Origin: a virus
DNA length: 64,000 nucleotides
Reading direction: 5' to 3' (one strand)
Virus record (IMG/VR): IMGVR_UViG_3300024265_000031
The number at the start of each line of letters is the position of its first letter. Position 1 is the stretch's first letter. Positions 20,727 through 52,000 of the stretch are shown here, piece after piece. Under the pieces are notes generated by a model. That model was not told where the DNA came from, ran no database searches, and saw only the letters and a list, made by a program, of their open reading frames with translations. A program made the position numbers and the translations under genes.

Positions 20727-21605
20727 TCATGCTCCATTTAAAATTGATTTTTGGTTTGATAATGCACTATCCAGTGTTTTATTTTTTACATGAGTATAAA
20801 TCTGTGTTGCCTTTAATGAAGAATGACCCAAAGCAGCTTGAATAGTTCTTATATTTACATCATTGTCAACAAGATTGGTTGCAAATGTATGGCGTAAAAC
20901 ATGAGGAGCTACTTCTTCTATACGTTTTTCTGATATTCCGCCACGTCTAGCTATTTCATTAATTTTATAACGAATACCCGATCCAGTAAAAAGCTTCTTG
21001 CGCAAAGATATAAAAAGATATTCGCGACACTTGTATTTTTGCAGTCTCCATGTTCTATATTTTCGTAGAAGCTGACAGGTGTCTTCAGTAAGAGCCAATG
21101 TACGCTCTTTGGATCCCTTTCCTTCTACAGTAATATGACATTCTGTTATGTTTTCTAATTTGAGAGTTATCAGTTCATTACGGCGTAGCCCACATAATAC
21201 AAGAAGAGATATCATCAATTTTTCCATGTCATTTTTGCATCCCTTAACCATGGCAAGAATTTCTTCATCTGTTAGAAAATTCGGATTCTTTTTACCAGTT
21301 TTCAAAGCCTTTACCTTGTCAAATGGCGACCTTTCAGTGTATTCATTATCAATCAGCCAATTGTAAAATGCTTTTAGCGGCCTAGTATGGGAGTTTACGC
21401 TTGATCGAGCCAAGCCTTGTTCAAGTAATTTCGCCTGGAATTCCCTACAATCTTTGGGAGTTATCAATGTTATGTCAATAAATTCATTGATATCTAATAT
21501 ATCAATAAATTTCTTGAGAGATGCCTTGTAGCTACTGACAGTATGTTTAGACAATTCTAAACTGATTGCTTCAATATATTCTTGTATTTCATTTATTGTA
21601 TTCAT
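20727..21605 (-). CDS. XerC/XerD-like tyrosine recombinase
   Basis: Catalytic set GLRR, GKGSKER, HVLRH, LGH, TQIYTH; true start is MNTINE after AGGAG (the track start at 21662 is the -35 box). Confidence 0.92.
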   Translation of the reverse strand: MNTINEIQEYIEAISLELSKHTVSSYKASLKKFIDILDINEFIDITLITPKDCREFQAKLLEQGLARSSVNSHTRPLKAFYNWLIDNEYTERSPFDKVKALKTGKKNPNFLTDEEILAMVKGCKNDMEKLMISLLVLCGLRRNELITLKLENITECHITVEGKGSKERTLALTEDTCQLLRKYRTWRLQKYKCREYLFISLRKKLFTGSGIRYKINEIARRGGISEKRIEEVAPHVLRHTFATNLVDNDVNIRTIQAALGHSSLKATQIYTHVKNKTLDSALSNQKSILNGA

Positions 21606-21633
21606 TGTTTCTCCTAGTATTTTAGTATAACTA

Positions 21634-21662
21634 ATTCTATCATATTTTTTGTGTTTTGTCAA
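21634..21662 (-). promoter_or_regulatory. Sigma70-type promoter of the recombinase
   Basis: TTGACA-17 bp-TAGAAT with TG extension. Confidence 0.85.
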
Positions 21663-22214: not shown

Positions 22215-22330
22215 AATAAAATCACCATTTTATTTAATATATTTCTGTTCCATTATAAACATTATTACTACAACCGTAGTATATAAAATCAGAGGGAATA
22301 ATAAGCATAGCACAGATGATATCATTTTAT

Positions 22331-22675
22331 TTAAAAATAAATAATGTCTTCTTCAAAATTTATTGACATTGGTTTTATAACCAAATCAAGGAATTCTTGA
22401 TTAATATTTTTGTCTACATGTGCTTTTGAAAATCTATTTCCTCTTGACGATTCAAGTGCAGGGAGCGCTCTGTATCGCGTGCCATCCACCAAGGTTATTC
22501 GATGAAAACTTATATTTCTAAAATCTTCTTGTATGTCATTTTTTGGAATATCTTTGATTAAATCATCCATCTTGTCTTTGGCAACTTTCCAAGTTTCTCC
22601 AAAAACTAGAATTTGTTCGTATAGTGGTGACATTATAAATTTTCTAATCCTCCCATTTCTTATTGTCCAACTCAT
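22331..22675 (-). CDS. Hypothetical protein
   Basis: 114 aa, preceded by junction motif and GGAGG. Confidence 0.6.
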   Translation of the reverse strand: MSWTIRNGRIRKFIMSPLYEQILVFGETWKVAKDKMDDLIKDIPKNDIQEDFRNISFHRITLVDGTRYRALPALESSRGNRFSKAHVDKNINQEFLDLVIKPMSINFEEDIIYF

Positions 22676-22694
22676 ATTCCTCCAGATAAAAGTA

Positions 22695-22901
22695 TCATTT
22701 TATTTGTGTAAATTCTAAATTCATTCTAACAGCAATAATTTTGTCTAAATACGATGCTCTTTCTATTATACAATTAGCACATAACAATCCGTGAAACCCA
22801 TCAGGATAAATTGCCAACCATTGATCATTAGGCAATGTTGTATCAAGACCAAAATCACTATACGGTTTACTACAATCTTCACATCTAACTATTGAATTCA
22901 T
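22695..22901 (-). CDS. Small Zn-ribbon protein
   Basis: CEDC...CANC; bounded by two junction motifs. Confidence 0.6.
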   Translation of the reverse strand: MNSIVRCEDCSKPYSDFGLDTTLPNDQWLAIYPDGFHGLLCANCIIERASYLDKIIAVRMNLEFTQIK

Positions 22902-22928
22902 TGTTTGTTTCCAGATAAAAGAACTATT

Positions 22929-23171
22929 TTATGTTCGTAAGTTTTTATATTCAGGTGAAAGATATGCTTCTATATTTTCTAAAGCAACCATTTTTCTGTA
23001 TTCTATCACCAAGCGATTCCATTCATTAATGTGTGCAATTCCCTCAACGCGGTCTGTTGAATATGCAATAGCAAAACAACAAGCAAGTATTCCGCCTTTT
23101 TGACCAAGAACAACATCAATTTCTTGTGGAAGTTTTTTACAAATAGGGCATTTTAAAAATTTATTTTTCAT
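22929..23171 (-). CDS. Small CxxC protein (Lar-like)
   Basis: KCPIC...EWNR. Confidence 0.5.
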   Translation of the reverse strand: MKNKFLKCPICKKLPQEIDVVLGQKGGILACCFAIAYSTDRVEGIAHINEWNRLVIEYRKMVALENIEAYLSPEYKNLRT

Positions 23172-23183
23172 ATTACTCCTTAA

Positions 23184-23307
23184 TGGACTTGGCGGTAATC
23201 GAAACCGCGTCCATCCTACCAGCTTAATGATATCTTTCGTGGTCTTTTCTAAGTTGTTTTTCCACTACCGCATATCACTGATAAAATGTCGAAACCCTTT
23301 CAAGCCC
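23184..23307 (-). ncRNA. Miniature tmRNA-like RNA (tRNA-like domain and P2 only)
   Basis: 5' GGGCUUG-AAAGGGUUUCGAC, 3' GGAC-GCGGU-UUCGAUU-ACCGC-CAAGUCC-A, G3.U70 pair, long helix in place of the anticodon arm; 124 nt. Confidence 0.75.
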
Positions 23308-23395
23308 AAGTTTATTACAATGATACTATTATTGTAAAAATGCATATAATTGTTATTGTCATTATTAATATATCCATAGTTCCTCCAAATAAAAC

Positions 23396-23644
23396 CTATC
23401 TTTCATTTAAAAACTTATCTATGGCTTCTACAACAGGATCTAATGAATCTTCTGGATTCCATTCCCACACTTCAGTTAAAAGCGATGCCATATCTAAATT
23501 TTCTTGCATAATTTTTGTCATATTTTGATGGAGTATTTCTATATCTCTTTCTAGTTTTATGATAGCTTCAGCCATACCATAAGTATCAAGCGTTCCATCT
23601 TGTTCATCTGTGAATTCATGTAAAACACGTACTCTAGTTTTCAT
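23396..23644 (-). CDS. Hypothetical coiled-coil protein (paralog of 23899-24141)
   Basis: Shared N-terminus MK.R..VL.EFT...DGT.D.Y.MA.AIIKLER.IE. Confidence 0.65.
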   Translation of the reverse strand: MKTRVRVLHEFTDEQDGTLDTYGMAEAIIKLERDIEILHQNMTKIMQENLDMASLLTEVWEWNPEDSLDPVVEAIDKFLNER

Positions 23645-23898
23645 TATTTATACTTCCTAATTATATTCTTGAACTCTTCTTTCATAATTTCATCCCAACA
23701 ATCACAGTTTAGTACAGTAACACCATCAGGAGATAAAGGTCTGACAGTATTGCAATTACCGCATATCCACTCTGTAGGCTGTTGCATTTTTGATACATCT
23801 TTTATACCATAGGGAACTAAATCCTCGCCTTCTGTAGTAGTGCAATCATACCCCGACAGACCACCGTGTTCATGATTTATATTGAATAATTCAGGCAT

Positions 23899-24141
23899 TT
23901 AGTACTCCAACTTTTCATATTGTTGAACAAGGGCTGACGCTATGACAATTGCCGATAATGAATCGTCAAGCTGTAAAAGTTTTTTTAATGCTCTCAAATC
24001 CTTGAGTGTGGCAACTTGTTGTATTTTTAATCGTTCAATATTGCGCTCTAATTTTATAATGGCTCCTGCCATACTATAAGCATCAAACGTTCCATCTTCC
24101 TTGTTAGTAAACTCATACAAAACACTTGCTCTACTTTTCAT
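23899..24141 (-). CDS. Hypothetical coiled-coil protein (paralog of 23396-23644)
   Basis: Same shared N-terminus. Confidence 0.65.
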   Translation of the reverse strand: MKSRASVLYEFTNKEDGTFDAYSMAGAIIKLERNIERLKIQQVATLKDLRALKKLLQLDDSLSAIVIASALVQQYEKLEY

Positions 24142-26134
24142 AAATCTCCTCAGATAAAATCATCCTTTATTTAATTTTATACCATCTCGTCTATGTCTTT
24201 TTTCAAAAGCCATTTGATTACTGCATTCTTGTGAAATCTTTTTCAATAATTTATAAGATGATGGATCAAGATATTCAAGAATAACTTCTTTGCCAACAGT
24301 TTCAATAATCTCATCAAGAATTTGAGCCATAGATCCTGGTTGTGGCGCGTACATTATTTCTTTTAATTGCATAAATCACTCCAGATAAAAGTCATATTTT
24401 ATCTCGTAACTGTTGGATATATTTTTCTAACATGATTGAGTGTGGTTTACTGCAGTTATGACATATTGCATGAAAAACATCAACAACTAAATTGGTATCG
24501 TTTCTGTGCAGCGTCTTGCAATAATAACAACTCCAATGAAAAACTAATCTATCACAATCAGGAAATATTTTTATTGGCACATTTTTTAATTTAGTCATAA
24601 ATAAAATTCATCTTTTATCTAACTTTTAGAACAAAGACAATCTTGGTATTGTGTTGAAAGCATAAATATTTTTTCAAGATCTGCATACATGTTGTCTGCT
24701 CTGCTATTTAATATGTTTTGATTTATTATATTATTGCATTTTTTACAAAAAACTCCTACTCTTAATTTTTCTTGTTCATCTAACCCAAAAGCTATATAGG
24801 AATTTTCTTTTCTAAAATAAGGGGTGGCCAATACAAAATAATATCCAATTTGTAGCAATTCAAGTTCTAACATATTTAAAAAAGAATCACTAAAAAAGTT
24901 ATTCATTACCTTAAGTATTTTTCGCGTTCTTTTACCCTTGACATATTGTTTTTGTTCAACAACATCTTCTTTTATGGCCTTCAATATTTTGTTTTCTTTT
25001 TTAGTTAACATTTTTCTCCTTGTATTTAAATATAACAACACTTATTTTATGACAACCATCACACAGTATATGTTCTTGATCACCTGGGGGAAACTGAACA
25101 TATTCTTTGTGGTGATAGTGTTTGCAATGAGGGCATTCCCATTCAAAACAAGTTTCAGGGAATGCGGGTAATACAATTTGTGGTTTATTTATAATAGCCA
25201 TAATAAATTCATATTTTATTTAACAATTAAGTAAACCAAGAATCCGCACCATGCTATACTAAGAATGTATGATGCAGCAACAGTCCAGATTTCCAAAAAA
25301 ATATCATCAAATGCCCAACCAATAATATGAGCTGGCAAAATCATTGTGTGTATAATTATTCTAAATGGTAATGCCAATAAAAATATAAAAACTCTGACAG
25401 AGGCTTTTATGTGTTCTACGTACTTTTGTAACATCTCTTCTCCTTGTATAATAAAATGCGGATTTTATGTTTCCAAAATGATTTGTTTGTAACACAAATA
25501 ACATAAATTCTTTTTGTGTATTGTCGCATTACATCCTACAGAATGACATCTTAATGGATCATATTTTGTTCCAGAACAAATTCTATTTTCCCCATTCATT
25601 CTTTCATTGTAACATCCTTCATAACACAATACAAATCTATCAGTTTCATCCCCGTATTGAATTGGACATCCGTACATAATTTCTCCTTGTAGATAAAAAC
25701 GTGTTTTATTTGCAACCACAAGTACTACCGCAATATGGACAGAATTCAATTTCTGTTTCATCTGCCTCTACTCTTCCAAGAGGCTCTTTCTTAATTTTGG
25801 GCAAGTCAATTTCAAATAGAATATCTATTTTTCTTAAATCTGCACTAAACCACCCAACATCAAATTGCCAACCATACCATGATAAATTAGGTGTTGAAAT
25901 TCTCCACTGTCCATATGCATATAATAAATAATTTTTATCATTGCTTATTTCTTCATGTTTATGATTATTTCTATCCCCAGTAATATCAATCCTTTTTAAT
26001 TTTGCCTCTGAAAAATCTAGCAACAAATTAGCAAATACTTCTGATTCCTTTTGCCATCTTTTTAAATTTTCTTCGCATACTTCGTCATAATTCATTGTAT
26101 AAACTCCTAGATAAAATACGTGTTTTATTTTGAG

Positions 26135-26207
26135 TAGCAGAGATGGGATTTGAACCCATATTATGCCAACTTATGGGGCTGGTGTGTTACCTATACACTA
26201 CTCTGCG
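26135..26207 (-). tRNA. tRNA-Met(CAT), initiator-like 1:72 mismatch, atypical C33
   Basis: Cloverleaf; anticodon arm ccagc-cccataa-gttgg. Confidence 0.7.
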
Positions 26208-26211
26208 ATAA

Positions 26212-26284
26212 AGCCGAAAGCAGGGATCGAACCCGCGGCATCCTTCTTACAAGGAAGGCACTCTACCAACTGAGTTATTCCGGC
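26212..26284 (-). tRNA. tRNA-Thr(TGT)
   Basis: ccttc-cttgtaa-gaagg; GGTTCGATCC T-arm. Confidence 0.9.
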
Positions 26285-26285
26285 A

Positions 26286-26360
26286 TGCTCTTGGAAGGAT
26301 TTGAACCTACAACTCACTGCATATAAGACAGGCACTCTAACCAGATTGAGTTACAAGAGC
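26286..26360 (-). tRNA. tRNA-Ile(TAT)
   Basis: Cloverleaf; anticodon loop cttatat. Confidence 0.8.
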
Positions 26361-26363
26361 TTA

Positions 26364-26434
26364 TGGACAATGAGAGGATCAAACTCTCGCCTCATCCTTG
26401 CAAGGGATGCGTACTCTCGCTATACTAATCGCCC
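26364..26434 (-). tRNA. tRNA-Ala(TGC)
   Basis: catcc-cttgcaa-ggatg; G3.U70. Confidence 0.85.
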
Positions 26435-26438
26435 AAGG

Positions 26439-26510
26439 TGGATGTGGAGAGATTTGAACTCCCGACTTCTCCCTTATCAGAGGAGCGTTCTACCACTGAA
26501 CTACACATCC
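26439..26510 (-). tRNA. tRNA-Ile(GAT)
   Basis: ctcct-ctgataa-gggag. Confidence 0.9.
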
Positions 26511-26513
26511 CTA

Positions 26514-26588
26514 TGCACCTAGCTGGACTTGAACCAGCGGATCTCATCTTTGTAAAAGATGTGTTTTCACCAACTAAACTATAGGTGC
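26514..26588 (-). tRNA. tRNA-Val(TAC)
   Basis: catct-tttacaa-agatg. Confidence 0.9.
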
Positions 26589-26589
26589 A

Positions 26590-26669
26590 TGGCGCATCCG
26601 GTGAGATTTGAACTCACGACCTTCTGTTCTTCAAACAGACGCTTAACTACCAGACTGAGCTACAGATGC
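26590..26669 (-). tRNA. tRNA-Phe(GAA), CCA encoded
   Basis: tctgt-ttgaaga-acaga. Confidence 0.9.
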
Positions 26670-26689
26670 ATAAATTTTTAAGGTTCTAA

Positions 26690-26771
26690 TGCTGATGGTA
26701 GGGCTCGAACCTACACGCTCGAAAGCACCAGATTTTAAGTCTGGGTTGTCTGCCAATTCCAACACACCAGC
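26690..26771 (-). tRNA. tRNA-Leu(TAA)
   Basis: ccaga-cttaaaa-tctgg; long variable arm. Confidence 0.9.
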
Positions 26772-26774
26772 CTA

Positions 26775-26916
26775 TGTTGTAGTCCAGGTCGCTCAGTTTA
26801 GTTGGTAATACCTGCATTTACCATCAGGACGGTTGCTGTAAATCTTCAACTTTTTTAACTCGTTGAGCAATTGCCAACTTACGCCAATTTTACGAACTGC
26901 CCTCGATGCTACAACA
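26775..26916 (-). ncRNA. Unidentified structured RNA (142 nt) within tRNA array
   Basis: Terminal helix tgttgtag/ctacaaca plus nested helices; fills the gap between two tRNAs. Confidence 0.55.
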
Positions 26917-26917
26917 A

Positions 26918-27000
26918 TACTGAAGATAGGAGTCGAACCTACACACCCAAAGGGTACTTCCGTTTGAAGAAAGCGCGTCTGCCAATTTCGCCACTTCAGC
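26918..27000 (-). tRNA. tRNA-Leu(CAA)
   Basis: ctttc-ttcaaac-ggaag; long variable arm. Confidence 0.88.
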
Positions 27001-27004
27001 ATAA

Positions 27005-27087
27005 TACTGGAGAGAGGGGTCGAACCTCTACGCCCTGCGGCACGTAGTTCTAAGCCACGCATGTCTGCCAAATTTCATCACTCCAGC
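27005..27087 (-). tRNA. tRNA-Leu(TAG)
   Basis: cgtgg-cttagaa-ctacg; long variable arm. Confidence 0.9.
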
Positions 27088-27164
27088 AAATATGTGAGCA
27101 ATGTGTTGAAATTCTCTACAACCTCAGTGTAAAGCATTGCTCACAGGGTCTTAATCTACTTATA

Positions 27165-28370: not shown

Positions 28371-28712
28371 TCATTCATTATCTTTCTTCTCAGTCTCAGA
28401 ATCCCCTTCCTCTGTAGGTTCTTCTGGCTCATCAGTTCCAGCAATATGTGCTACAATAAGAGCATTTACAGTTCTCACTTGAGAAGTGTCTACTGCATCA
28501 ACAAGTGTTTCTAAAAGTTTCTCTTCAAATATAACTTCATATCCATTTGGAAAGATAACTCCCTGATCTTCTTTTGAGTCGCGATTAAAATTCAATCCGT
28601 TTAATGGATGTTTTGTCCAAGAAAAACTATAGCGATTGGTAGCGCTATATTTCCAAATGAAGTCAAGGCTTCCGTTGTTTGTGTTCTTAATTAGTGTTTC
28701 AATAAATTTCAT
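28371..28712 (-). CDS. Hypothetical protein with acidic tail
   Basis: 113 aa, GGAG RBS. Confidence 0.55.
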   Translation of the reverse strand: MKFIETLIKNTNNGSLDFIWKYSATNRYSFSWTKHPLNGLNFNRDSKEDQGVIFPNGYEVIFEEKLLETLVDAVDTSQVRTVNALIVAHIAGTDEPEEPTEEGDSETEKKDNE

Positions 28713-31411: not shown

Positions 31412-31702
31412 TCATTTTTTATCTTCCTCATAATAATCACAATTCTTAACAAAAGAAGTTACATTGCGGTTGCGTTTGAAAGCCTTGTTTAAAAACTCGC
31501 AGGTGTTATCAACATATCTACATGAACGTCTTCCACTGGGATCTTCCCTATAAACTATTTCATGGGCGCAAGATATACAAGCCCTAGTTGCTGGATTGCG
31601 ATCACAGGTCTTTTCATGTTTCAAAATAACTTTCACATCAAAAGAACCAGCTTTTCTACAACCATAAAATTGACAGAGATAGAATATTTTTTCTTTAGGC
31701 AC
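31412..31702 (-). CDS. Cys-rich hypothetical protein
   Basis: HEKTCDRNPATRACISC. Confidence 0.55.
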   Translation of the reverse strand: MPKEKIFYLCQFYGCRKAGSFDVKVILKHEKTCDRNPATRACISCAHEIVYREDPSGRRSCRYVDNTCEFLNKAFKRNRNVTSFVKNCDYYEEDKK

Positions 31703-33117
31703 TATATCTCTCCTGCCGTATGAGAATTGCTTTCCCTGAATCCAGCACTGGTAATCTCTATAAATTCAGCCTTAGTAAGTTCTGGCACATTATACGCATT
31801 GCAATAACTCATTCCAGATTTCAAACCTCCAAGCAACTGATAAATTATATCATTCACAATTCCTTTATATGGTATGAAAGATTCTACTCCTTCTGGTACG
31901 ATGGTATTAAGTGCTCCCTTATCTGTCCTATCAGCGTTTGCCAAAAAAGAAGCTGAACCCCTATGGGCCTTATACTTTTTATTCTTTCTCGTAATTACTT
32001 CGCCAGGACTTTCAGTGGTTCCAGCAAATAATCCTCCCAACATTACTGTAGAGGCTCCTGCGGCTAAAGCTTTAGTTATATCGCCAGAATATCTTATACC
32101 CCCATCAGCAATTATGTGCTTATTCAATCTTGTAGCAGCCTTTGAACATTTCATAACTGCTGTTAACTGAGGCACTCCTACACCAGCCACAATTCTTGTC
32201 GTACAGGAAGCCCCAGGGCCAATTCCAACTTTTACTGTGTCTGCTCCCGCGTCTAATAAATCATTTACTCCACTGGCTGTAGCAACATTTCCACCAACAA
32301 TATCCACATGTGGAAATTTTGTTCTAATCTGTCTTATTGTTTTCAGAACAATTTCATTATGACCATGTGCCACATCCACTACAATTGCATCAGCGCCAGC
32401 TTCTACAATGGCCTCTACTCTTGCCATATAGTCGCCAATTACACCAACAGATGCACCAACTTTGTATCTTTCATGTTCATCAACAGTAGAATTAGGATAT
32501 TTTTCAGAATTCTCTAAAGACTTTGCCGTAATAAGTTTTATAAATTTATAATACATTTGCCTTTCACTTATTATGGGTAATTTTTCAACTTTATGCATTT
32601 TGAAAAATTCTTTTGCCTCATCTTTGGTTGGAATGTCCGTCAAATAAAAAATGTTTGACATTGGTGTCATTAGTTCAAGCGCAGTCTTAGACAAATCTGT
32701 TTCATAAACATAATCTCTTTTAGAAACAATACCCAAAAAACTATTTTGTGTGTCTACAACAACAAATCCCGTCTTATCAGAATAGCTAATTAATTCCTTC
32801 ATTTCTGCAAGAGTAACTAAAGGCAAAATCTTTTGTGGATCCTCAATCGTATGTCCAGCATAATTTTTCACTCTTTTAATATGCCAGACCTCTTCTTCAA
32901 TAGACATAAACCTGTGAATAAATCCAATGCCACCAGTCTGAGCCATAGCAATAGCCATGTTTGACTCTGTTACAGTTGCCATATTTGCAGAAATCAATGG
33001 TATATTCAAAACTATTTTTTCTGTAAGATTTGTAGCCAGGGATACATTAGATCTACTATCAATAAATGATCGTTTAGGAACTAGAAGCACATCGTCAAAT
33101 GTCAAACCTTTTATCAT
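31702..33117 (-). CDS. guaB: IMP dehydrogenase with CBS domains
   Basis: [40 protein letters not shown]. Confidence 0.92.
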
Positions 33118-34188
33118 TTAGATAAACCTTGCAAGATTTTTCTCAATAGTTTCCCAATCAATGATTCCACCAGTTCTGTCAATGATGGAATCGTAAGATT
33201 TGCCCGTATTCAATATTGTAATTGGTAGATTAGTTAACATTTCAATCTTATCAATTAGATGGTGTATCTTGGGCGTAATTTGATTGGCATTTGTAGTATT
33301 ATTTATATTGATATCATAGTGCTCACAAAATGTAAGTGCAATTTGTGTTGCGCCATTAACTTCAACCGCATACAACAACTGTTCAAAATCAATCCCAGAT
33401 GCCTTACGCCTGGTTTTGCCATAAATTGAACTAGGTTCTGCAAAGCCCATAGAATCCAATTGATCATATTGAAGCTCTGGTACATCTCCCATATTGCCAG
33501 CACCCTCCCTGGATGGCAATGCCTTTACCACCAAAACAACTTCTTTCAAATTTTGCCAATTCAAAAGCACATCATCTGCCGCAGCCATAGCTGTAACATT
33601 GTCTGAGGTTACGTTAGGGTAGTCACCTATAGACAGCGAAAGAAATGTTCCTTGAGAGGATTCAATCATTACAACACCTTCTTTAGAACCTTGATTGATT
33701 TCTCCGCTAACCTCAGTCAAAAATTCCTGAAGCACTTCAATATCTTTAGCTTGTTGAACTTTACGAAGAGCAAGATCAGCCCTACAATATCCAGTTCCAC
33801 TCATTGTGGATCCAATATTGTTCATATCTTTACTGTCATATTCTGCTTGAATGTGTTCTGGGGTAATGATTGGACAATGCCTGTCTATTTTTACACGTTC
33901 TCTTAGGTTATACCTATCCATTTCGGCAAACAATTTTACAGGATCTACAGCAACACCACTGCCGATTCTAATTTGTGTTTCAGGATTGAATATCCATCCT
34001 AAAGGAAGTTGGTTTGCTTTGAGATAGGTTGTTTCATTTTGCATAAAGATGCCATGCTCTGCATTAGCGCCAGTTCCAGCACGACATACCAATTTAGAAT
34101 TTTCTCTTACACTGAGATATGCATCAATCAACCCCTTTCCCTCATCTCCCCACTGCGCCCCAACGACAATCCATGCTCCTCTATTCAA
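33118..34188 (-). CDS. purA: Adenylosuccinate synthetase-like protein (short, divergent)
   Basis: GAQWGDEGKG, IGSTMSGTG, QGTFL, YPNVTS. Confidence 0.78.
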   Translation of the reverse strand: MNRGAWIVVGAQWGDEGKGLIDAYLSVRENSKLVCRAGTGANAEHGIFMQNETTYLKANQLPLGWIFNPETQIRIGSGVAVDPVKLFAEMDRYNLRERVKIDRHCPIITPEHIQAEYDSKDMNNIGSTMSGTGYCRADLALRKVQQAKDIEVLQEFLTEVSGEINQGSKEGVVMIESSQGTFLSLSIGDYPNVTSDNVTAMAAADDVLLNWQNLKEVVLVVKALPSREGAGNMGDVPELQYDQLDSMGFAEPSSIYGKTRRKASGIDFEQLLYAVEVNGATQIALTFCEHYDININNTTNANQITPKIHHLIDKIEMLTNLPITILNTGKSYDSIIDRTGGIIDWETIEKNLARFI

Positions 34189-38837: not shown

Positions 38838-38850
38838 AGTTTTCTCCTTG

Positions 38851-38924
38851 AAGCAGGTAAAAGATTCGAACTTTTTACTAGTGGTTCAAAGCCACTTATG
38901 TTAAGCCAATTACACCAACCTGCC
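38851..38924 (-). tRNA. tRNA-Gln(TTG)
   Basis: agtgg-ctttgaa-ccact. Confidence 0.85.
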
Positions 38925-38928
38925 ACAA

Positions 38929-39000
38929 TACTCCCACAGAGAATTGAACTCTGATCTGGACATTGAAAGTGTCCAATCCTGACCATTAGACGATGGGAGT
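38929..39000 (-). tRNA. tRNA-Glu(TTC)
   Basis: ggaca-ctttcaa-tgtcc. Confidence 0.9.
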
Positions 39001-39028
39001 ATTTTATCAACACTATATTGTTACTAAA

Positions 39029-39103
39029 TCTGGATGGGAAGATTTGAACTTCCGATTTCGCGCGTCCAAGGCGCGTATCTTAGCCTGACTCGATTACATC
39101 CAG
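39029..39103 (-). tRNA. tRNA-Pro(TGG)
   Basis: cgcgc-cttggac-gcgcg. Confidence 0.88.
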
Positions 39104-39110
39104 TTATTCT

Positions 39111-39298
39111 GGCTTTCCACCAGATTGACAGTGTTATCATGAATTACTGTTTGTTGTCTTTTTCCAACTGTCAGGTTTAGTCAACAACTTTCCTTTGTCA
39201 CAGGCTCCTACATTTTTACTCAGGGACATATTATTGTTTGAGATTTACTGTCGATTTCATCTGTGTGTTTACCAAGCGAGACAAATACTTGGTCAGCC
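39111..39298 (-). ncRNA. Unidentified structured RNA (about 188 nt) within tRNA array 2
   Basis: Closing GGCU/AGCC, hairpin ACCAAG/CUUGGU, nested CAGAU/AUCUG and GACAGU/ACUGUC; no ORF in the track. Confidence 0.5.
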
Positions 39299-39301
39299 TT
39301 G

Positions 39302-39383
39302 TGGATGCGAAAGGGCTCGAACCTATAATGCTTTACGCGCCTGATTTACAGTCAGGTTCCTTATCCATTTTGGATACACATCC
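39302..39383 (-). tRNA. tRNA-Tyr(GTA)
   Basis: cctga-ctgtaaa-tcagg; long variable arm. Confidence 0.9.
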
Positions 39384-39390
39384 ATATCTG

Positions 39391-39477
39391 CGGAGAATGC
39401 TAGGATCGAACTAGCGCACCCAATTACGGATGACCTCAATTTAGCAAATTGGTGCTTTGCCACTCAGCCAATTCTCC
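39391..39477 (-). tRNA. tRNA-Ser(GCT)
   Basis: Loop ttgctaa; long variable arm; G73. Confidence 0.88.
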
Positions 39478-39478
39478 A

Positions 39479-39565
39479 AGGAAGGTGGTGGGATTGAACC
39501 ACCGCACCCCGTTAAGGATGTCATCAGTTTTCAAGACTGCAGCATTACCACTCTGCCAACCTTCC
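39479..39565 (-). tRNA. tRNA-Ser(TGA)
   Basis: Loop cttgaaa; long variable arm. Confidence 0.88.
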
Positions 39566-41042: not shown

Positions 41043-41119
41043 TGGGGTGACTGAGGAGATTTGAACTCCCAACTTCTGCATTCACAGTGCAGCGTTCCGC
41101 CAATTGAACTACAGCCACC
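41043..41119 (-). tRNA. tRNA-His(GTG), G-1 and CCA encoded
   Basis: ctgca-ctgtgaa-tgcag. Confidence 0.92.
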
Positions 41120-47010: not shown

Positions 47011-47026
47011 TTGTTTAATCTCCTAG

Positions 47027-47099
47027 AGAGGGTGGTGAGATTCGGACTCACGGCTTCCAATTTGGAAGAATGGCACTCTACCAACTGAGTTACACCCTC
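47027..47099 (-). tRNA. tRNA-Gly(TCC)
   Basis: Loop cttccaa; U73. Confidence 0.82.
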
Positions 47100-47102
47100 G
47101 CA

Positions 47103-47175
47103 CTCCCACGCCTTGATTCGAACAAGGAACTTCAGTGTTAACAGCACCGTACTCTGCCAGTTGAGTTACATGGGA
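47103..47175 (-). tRNA. tRNA-Asn(GTT)
   Basis: cggtg-ctgttaa-cactg. Confidence 0.9.
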
Positions 47176-51884: not shown

Positions 51885-51905
51885 TTTTTCTCCTTTTTAT
51901 TTCTA

Positions 51906-51980
51906 CAGGACGTAAGGGAATCGAACCCAAGATTGCCTACTGTTTTGGAGACAGTTATGCTACCATTACACCAACGTCCT
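51906..51980 (-). tRNA. tRNA-Trp(CCA)
   Basis: actgt-ctccaaa-acagt. Confidence 0.9.
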
Positions 51981-52000
51981 AGATAAAATGATGCTTTTAT

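Follow-up and report, generated by a model that had tools for sequence, protein, structure and literature searches.

The DNA analysed here, which we call the window, is a stretch of 64,000 nt from the IMG/VR virus record IMGVR_UViG_3300024265_000031. It belongs to an uncultured phage with a genome of about 150 kb (the contig on record for its IMPDH has 150,297 nt) and was found in one DNA sequencing run, that of a subsurface metagenome, which is probably its source, with no RNA run listed. The phage traits of the window include tail proteins, a Pol III alpha subunit, a primase-helicase of the DnaG-DnaB type and the large subunit of RNR, and there are also genes for IMPDH, adenylosuccinate synthetase, sugar-nucleotide enzymes and glycosyltransferases. 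Within a run of small minus-strand genes lies the subject of this work, a 124-nt gene for a tmRNA homologue without a coding part, hereafter the mini-tmRNA. Its segments and neighbours are collected in Table 1.

Table 1. Segments of the mini-tmRNA and features of its surroundings in the window
Feature	Position	Strand	Remarks
Whole mini-tmRNA	23184..23307	-	G1 = 23307; A73-equivalent discriminator = 23184; CCA not encoded
Acceptor stem 5' strand, RNA 1-7	23301..23307	-	7/7 pairs with 23185-23191; G3 of G3.U70 = 23305
Stemless D-loop analogue (13 nt), RNA 8-20	23288..23300	-	ends with tmRNA-specific UUCGAC; aligns with RF00023 positions 8-20 at high posterior probability
Helix 2a 5' strand, RNA 21-30	23278..23287	-	10-11 consecutive pairs with 23213-23222
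Helix 2b 5' strand, RNA 31-36	23272..23277	-	6 bp with 23228-23233
Apical part, RNA 37-69	23239..23271	-	6-nt internal loop with GUAG; 4-bp stem; 19-nt A-rich loop
19-nt A-rich apical loop	23243-23261	-	contains one UAG (fold)
GAAAG internal loop, helix 2b 3' strand and 5-nt A/U-rich 3' bulge, RNA 70-85	23223..23238	-	fold
Helix 2a 3' strand and GGAC linker, RNA 86-99	23209..23222	-	RF00023 alignment, pair count
T arm, RNA 100-116	23192..23208	-	5-bp stem with unusual U-A closing pair; 7-nt loop UUCGAUU
Acceptor stem 3' strand and discriminator A	23184..23191	-	U70 = 23188
Possible 20-codon micro-ORF, strongly hydrophobic	23315..23377	-	GGAGG ribosome-binding site; ends 7 nt before G1
Downstream gene, 80 aa, no family	22929..23181	-	AAGGAG ribosome-binding site starts 3 nt past discriminator
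20 tRNA genes in five clusters	26134-27088, 38850-39565, 41043-41118, 47026-47175, 51905-51981	-	ARAGORN
Tyrosine integrase/Xer-like recombinase gene	20727-21662		1.5 kb and four ORFs away from mini-tmRNA

The possible hydrophobic micro-ORF lies immediately upstream of the mini-tmRNA, in a gap of 88 nt, and an inverted repeat with 7-bp arms (about 23313-23335) overlaps its end. The small proteins encoded on either side of the mini-tmRNA match no Pfam or PHROG family. Neither a terminator-like site nor a promoter above chance was found in 22600-23900. Since the ribosome-binding site of the downstream gene follows the discriminator so closely and no terminator or promoter lies nearby, the RNA would have to be excised from a polycistronic transcript in the manner of a tRNA. 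The gene junctions in this region carry palindromes of the form ATAAAA-N6-TTTTAT, ten of which lie between 22216 and 27450 (at 22216, 22686, 22915, 24385, 24601, 25451, 25693 with an N5 spacer, 26111, 27207 and 27450); none of the ten directly flanks the mini-tmRNA.

The tRNA set of the phage comprises, among others, a tRNA-Ile(UAU), three tRNA-Leu and one tRNA-Ala(UGC). Most of the 20 tRNA genes, just as the mini-tmRNA, have no encoded CCA, and the tRNA-Ala(UGC) shares with the mini-tmRNA the pairs G1-C72, G2-C71, G3.U70 and C4-G69 as well as A73. Weak Rfam matches to 'Plastid-ycf2' at 26438-26588 on the plus strand lie antisense to two of the tRNA genes and are almost certainly artefacts of tRNA complementarity.

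The identity of the gene was examined with the Rfam tmRNA model, RF00023. The model matched 23181-23307 of the minus strand with 54.1 bits, above its gathering score of 47 (E 1.9e-18 for the whole window), and this was the sole match reported at the site, lower-scoring overlaps of the same clan being suppressed in the output. The alignment spans model positions 1-374, so that both ends of the model are matched, and 294 interior model positions are replaced by 48 nt. In the minimum free energy (MFE) fold (-35.6 kcal/mol, z = -3.0 against 200 dinucleotide shuffles) the helices of Table 1 were recovered. The original prediction, made from the letters alone, had described a tmRNA-like RNA lacking the mRNA-like domain, and its sequence, coordinates, strand and segment parse all proved exact on re-reading. 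The alanine acceptor stem it proposed, with G3.U70 and A73, is complete, the pairs being in order G-C, G-C, G.U, C-G, U-A, U-A and G-C, followed by A. The stemless D-loop ending in UUCGAC, the linker, the T arm and the P2-like helix are likewise seen in both the RF00023 alignment and the fold, as predicted. The pairing and sequence features of a tmRNA, from the acceptor stem to helix 2, are thus all present, and the observation is far beyond chance: the mini-tmRNA is the tRNA-like domain (TLD) of a tmRNA together with helix 2, without the mRNA-like domain. ARAGORN, which the original prediction had named as one means of checking, called 20 tRNAs, each of them on the minus strand of the window, and no tmRNA or tag, leaving the mini-tmRNA uncalled; standard phage annotation would therefore overlook such an element.

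In the RF00023 alignment the apical part stands in the place of PK1-MLD-PK2-4 of full-length tmRNA. We found no canonical resume signal in the mini-tmRNA sequence and no frame ending in Ala-Ala-stop, which agrees with the predicted absence of a tag ORF, and the interior folds as a single hairpin with no stable pseudoknot seen in the MFE fold, again as predicted. A pseudoknot joining the apical loop to the 3' bulge was considered and rejected; the 5-nt complementarity is within chance and is absent from the look-alikes described below. Several micro-ORF frames in or near the RNA were judged within chance as well. A tRNA-Ala identity was also dismissed: there is no D stem or anticodon arm, and ARAGORN called no tRNA here.

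To place the element among bacterial tmRNAs, we followed a 22-mer that begins with the GGAC linker, takes in the whole T arm with its unusual U-A closing pair and ends at the first acceptor base. At least 120 bacterial genomes contain an identical 22-mer; in 109 of them it is part of a normal ssrA gene, about 340-380 nt long and most often about 345 nt. These genes come mainly from Clostridia (Acutalibacteraceae, Oscillospiraceae, Ruminococcaceae and Eubacterium). Six of these ssrA genes were put through ARAGORN and carry normal tags, for example DNNTVLKAA. The likeness to these canonical one-piece tmRNAs extends beyond the 22 identical nucleotides: the acceptor stem with G3.U70, the D-loop and the GAC/GGAC linkers are of the same make, the D-loop differs by 1 nt from that of about 100 full-length Clostridia tmRNAs, and helices 2a and 2b are homologous, recognisably so in the inner part of helix 2a and the entry to helix 2b. 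Unlike the canonical tmRNA, the mini-tmRNA has no PK1-PK4, no resume codon and no tag frame. Moreover, acceptor pairs 4:69 (G-C to C-G) and 5:68 (A-U to U-A) are changed on both sides relative to Clostridia ssrA, and helix 2a still forms 10-11 pairs from a largely different sequence. The flipped pairs that are still paired, the retained G3.U70 and the re-paired helix 2a together indicate selection on structure.

The 22-mer also occurs in two Saccharibacteria genomes (L126/L233, G006:C2:28191-28264; L137, G007:C26:1464-1537). We examined these matches as possible tmRNAs or mini-tmRNAs and found them to be ordinary tRNA-Ala(CGC) genes, in which the 22-mer makes up the variable loop and the T arm; the true tmRNAs of the two genomes have another T arm. 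RF00023 gives these tRNA-Ala(CGC) genes weak full-span matches of 26-32 bits, which is a trap for searches of this kind.

For a census of similar elements, IMG/VR was scanned three times and the JGI metagenomes once with narrow patterns, and hits were kept if they had an in-register acceptor stem of 7 bp together with a T stem of 5 bp. This strict filter left 25 distinct elements besides that of the window, 16 of them short and 9 long, with lengths of 77-137 nt, and two more, with T loops of 6 instead of 7 nt (L021:8828-8935 and L025:2669-2791), were added by eye and RF00023, giving about 27. The pairs G1-C72, G2-C71 and G3.U70 are invariant in all 16 short forms and in the 8 long viral look-alikes examined, in which a script tallied the acceptor and helix pairs relative to fixed landmarks. 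The short forms also show double-sided changes at acceptor pairs 4-7 and at two T-stem pairs, that is, covariation. No close relatives of the phage were found in GenBank phages, in IMG/VR or in the one scan of JGI metagenomes, which yielded only L228, from a different phage, and the covariation evidence therefore holds at the level of the class.

Four independent elements of 122-124 nt (L228, L052, L025 and L005), with RF00023 scores of 41-71 bits, have nearly the layout of the window element: a helix 2a of 9-11 bp and an A/U-rich 3' bulge come first, helix 2b follows, the 5' side then carries GUAG and the 3' side GAAA, and the apex is variable. Helix 2a recurs with different sequences in L228, L005 and L025 and in bacterial tmRNAs; L228, L052, L025 and Clostridia tmRNAs also have the GAAA and the 3' bulge. 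L228 adjoins five tRNA genes. The class appears to be widespread in uncultivated phages. One and the same 112-nt mini-tmRNA, whose apical hairpin is long and GC-rich, was seen in a separate group of four IMG/VR contigs of 106-140 kb from different samples (L033, L046, L061 and L065); one of the four, with terminal repeats, is a complete genome of 139.8 kb that lacks SmpB.

When the whole 64 kb were scanned with Rfam at a permissive E <= 1, no second tmRNA appeared, and in the output, from which same-clan overlaps are suppressed, no match was listed for the two-piece (permuted) or mitochondrial tmRNA families (RF01849-51, RF02544), readings that we accordingly set aside. No SmpB family is among the Pfam matches listed for the 68 window ORFs of at least 90 aa. 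The smpB gene or separate coding piece for which the original prediction had proposed a search was thus not found among these matches in the window, and both SmpB and a full-length tmRNA are absent from five viral records with long forms, including the complete one. Host factors would therefore have to be used.

A phage RNA of this kind is not without precedent. The tmRNA Website lists mycobacteriophage DS6A as having a 'TLD only' tmRNA (tmID 11587; PMC4131195), and a similar molecule, chargeable or not, strongly inhibited the endogenous tmRNA of E. coli, perhaps by titrating SmpB (Mao et al. 2009, cited by both PMC4131195 and PMC11915505). In the DS6A record, the element lies at about 28478-28560. 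Like the mini-tmRNA, it is phage-encoded, has a complete TLD with G3.U70 but neither a tag frame nor pseudoknots nor an SmpB of its phage, and gives a full-span RF00023 match with the interior deleted. The differences are of size and setting: about 80 nt in DS6A against about 124 nt here, and 43.2 bits, below the Rfam cut-off, against 54.1 bits, above it. Unlike the DS6A element, the mini-tmRNA keeps helices 2a and 2b and the 3' bulge and has an extra hairpin with the 19-nt A-rich loop; DS6A is an actinophage, whereas the window comes from a tRNA-rich phage of about 150 kb from a subsurface metagenome.

Tag-less tmRNAs were said in the original prediction to be known from some protist mitochondria. 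This is correct but too narrow, as they are also known from phage DS6A, plastids and a few bacteria. According to the 2025 update of the tmRNA database (PMC11915505), RefSeq viruses hold 79 phage tmRNAs and only 9 'Standard, no CDS' sequences; CDS-less tmRNAs occur in plastids and mitochondria, tags of 2 aa occur in some bacteria, and the organellar CDS-less tmRNAs are conserved together with SmpB, so that the authors of the database think them still helpful with incomplete mRNAs. The mitochondrial (jakobid/oomycete, RF02544) and plastid molecules resemble the mini-tmRNA in the loss of the mRNA-like domain, in keeping the alanine-accepting TLD and in having SmpB encoded elsewhere (PMC11915505), but their genes are mostly permuted and in two pieces, whereas the phage gene is standard and unpermuted. 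Full-length tmRNAs, for their part, are known from huge phages, where they were found with ARAGORN and are sometimes accompanied by SmpB (PMC7162821; phage G, PMC12484599). With its complete TLD, its lack of a tag frame and its place in a phage genome, the mini-tmRNA is a CDS-less/TLD-only phage tmRNA. It is not new in kind, since DS6A precedes it, and represents here a larger sort that retains helix 2.

As to its function, the two roles suggested in the original prediction, an SmpB decoy and a rescue RNA without a tag, are the appropriate candidates. We incline on balance to the reading that the mini-tmRNA is a functional CDS-less tmRNA of the phage that competes with host tmRNA for SmpB and stalled ribosomes, and we consider this somewhat probable. 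The idea of a decoy is itself not new, its precedent being DS6A and the inhibition result in E. coli. For expression, processing, charging, SmpB binding and an inhibitory effect we infer the following course. The RNA would be transcribed together with the neighbouring small minus-strand genes; RNase P would cut its 5' end, and a 3' nuclease and the host CCA-adding enzyme would finish its 3' end, as for the CCA-less tRNAs of the phage. Host AlaRS would then charge it through G3.U70 and A73, and the surface made of the D-loop, GAC and T arm, which is common to bacterial tmRNAs, may bind host SmpB (and EF-Tu). In this form, with SmpB and EF-Tu, the alanylated RNA could enter stalled ribosomes. 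Having no resume codon, tag frame or pseudoknot ring, the mini-tmRNA cannot complete trans-translation, and the net effect would be that it competes with host tmRNA for SmpB and stalled ribosomes, with less degradation-tagging and less of the linked mRNA decay during infection. We favour competition because it requires nothing beyond the parts present and because it has the only experimental precedent. Two points speak against it. The long helix 2 and the 19-nt loop are superfluous for a pure SmpB sponge, as RNAs of the DS6A type manage with about 80 nt, and the benefit of blocking trans-translation to a phage with 20 tRNAs is not obvious.

The main alternative, though a rather unlikely one, is rescue without a tag, in which the alanylated mini-tmRNA with SmpB would accept the nascent chain, and the ribosome would be freed by drop-off and peptidyl-tRNA hydrolase or by an ArfB-like factor. 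The translation capacity of the phage would thereby be restored without marking for proteolysis, as proposed for the CDS-less mitochondrial tmRNAs. Judged by its sequence, the RNA appears to retain every feature for charging and A-site entry, including the full helix 2, which in the tmRNA-SmpB complex reportedly mimics a long variable arm. The heavy investment of the phage in translation and the conservation of the CDS-less organellar tmRNAs with SmpB point the same way. However, after transfer the A site would again be empty and there would be no message, so that a further rescue factor is needed, and no ArfB, Pth or RF-like factor is among the Pfam matches listed for the window. In addition, the sole experimental datum on a similar molecule, as the two tmRNA Website papers relate it, is one of inhibition.

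A bolder version concerns the helix-2-retaining forms of 122-124 nt as a whole (the window element, L228, L052, L025 and L005). It takes them for a distinct class that is not a mere set of SmpB sponges and that would give large tRNA-rich phages a complete rescue, tag-less or with a micro-tag, in which the apical loop (with a UAG in the window element) serves as a minimal template or release signal; we regard this as improbable.

Its template component may also be taken by itself: the 19-nt A-rich loop would be a tiny mRNA-like domain, on which two or three codons are read before release at UAG, leaving a short tag that is not a degron. We hold this to be very improbable. The apical loop does contain an in-frame AAA-ACA-ACU-UAG, five AU-rich long forms have stop triplets at RNA positions 56-63, the loop bears a vague likeness to the A-rich resume region in tmRNAs of Clostridia, and the 2-aa tags of some bacteria show how short a tag can be. 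Yet the U-A resume signal at -5/-4 is missing for this frame, and the frame that aligns with the bacterial tag has no stop. AU-rich loops hold stop triplets by chance, and the GC-rich long forms L021, L056 and L092 are without a stop in the apex. Furthermore, a loop on a 4-bp stem atop a helix of about 16 bp could probably hardly reach the decoding centre.

The opposing case named in the original prediction was that of a decayed full-length ssrA or an integration-site remnant. In the latter form it would be an attP/integration copy of the 3' end of a host tmRNA or tRNA-Ala, kept because of the nearby recombinase. The tyrosine integrase/Xer-like gene of Table 1 and the 27 of 29 nt at the 3' end that are identical to the 3' half of Saccharibacteria tRNA-Ala(CGC) would fit an integration site, for which tmRNA and tRNA genes are commonly used (PMC11915505). 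The structure argues otherwise: both halves of the molecule are present, all helices are intact in the MFE fold, and the 7-bp stem is perfect in spite of the two double compensatory changes against the nearest bacterial tmRNAs. Nor was an identical bacterial 3' end found in the genomes searched: the acceptor 3' strand is absent from the 120 genomes listed with the T-arm 22-mer, and in 400 sampled Patescibacteria nothing besides tRNA-Ala(CGC) matches the 3' 29-mer within 3 mismatches. Four ORFs separate the element from the recombinase, and the 122-124-nt layout recurs independently in other viral contigs. The remnant is thus not supported, and we give it very little credence.

The tRNA arrays of phages are in general regarded as a buffer against defences that target tRNAs. 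That the mini-tmRNA is a decoy for some other factor that binds tmRNA or tRNA-Ala, such as SmpB-like defence proteins (CoCoNuT CnuH), tRNA-cleaving defence nucleases or the recruitment of RNase R, rather than for trans-translation itself, is highly unlikely and purely speculative. SmpB-like domains do occur in predicted RNA-targeting defence systems (PMC10542128), but no system of these kinds is known to sense TLDs, and nothing in the window ties the mini-tmRNA to anti-defence genes.

If it is true that phage RNAs of this class block or re-route trans-translation, ribosome rescue would be a common target of phage takeover. The published basis of the class is one phage case and one heterologous inhibition experiment, and the class is invisible to standard annotation, ARAGORN missing the window element and DS6A falling below the Rfam cut-off. 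The long forms would, in addition, be natural minimal tmRNAs that could separate SmpB binding, A-site entry and template switching. The value of the work lies in this under-annotated class and natural minimal design; the single locus is a correct annotation and not a discovery.

With regard to relatives and host, blastn against GenBank phages gave no match for the mini-tmRNA, either alone or together with 3 kb of flanking DNA. IMG/VR contains no exact copy of the T-arm 29-mer and no relatives of the phosphoesterase that neighbours the mini-tmRNA. By sequence affinity, the T arm points to Clostridia tmRNAs or to CPR tRNA-Ala, so the host candidates would be CPR bacteria or Firmicutes. A host inference from the T arm was rejected, because the 22-mer occurs alike in Clostridia ssrA and in Saccharibacteria tRNA-Ala(CGC). 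The IMPDH of the phage is nearest to proteins of Candidatus Gottesmanbacteria and Roizmanbacteria (55-57% identity), weakly hinting at a CPR host. The identical IMPDH was found on one contig of 9.9 kb, which ends short of the mini-tmRNA. In the window, the genes for IMPDH and adenylosuccinate synthetase stand side by side at 31702-34188 on the minus strand.
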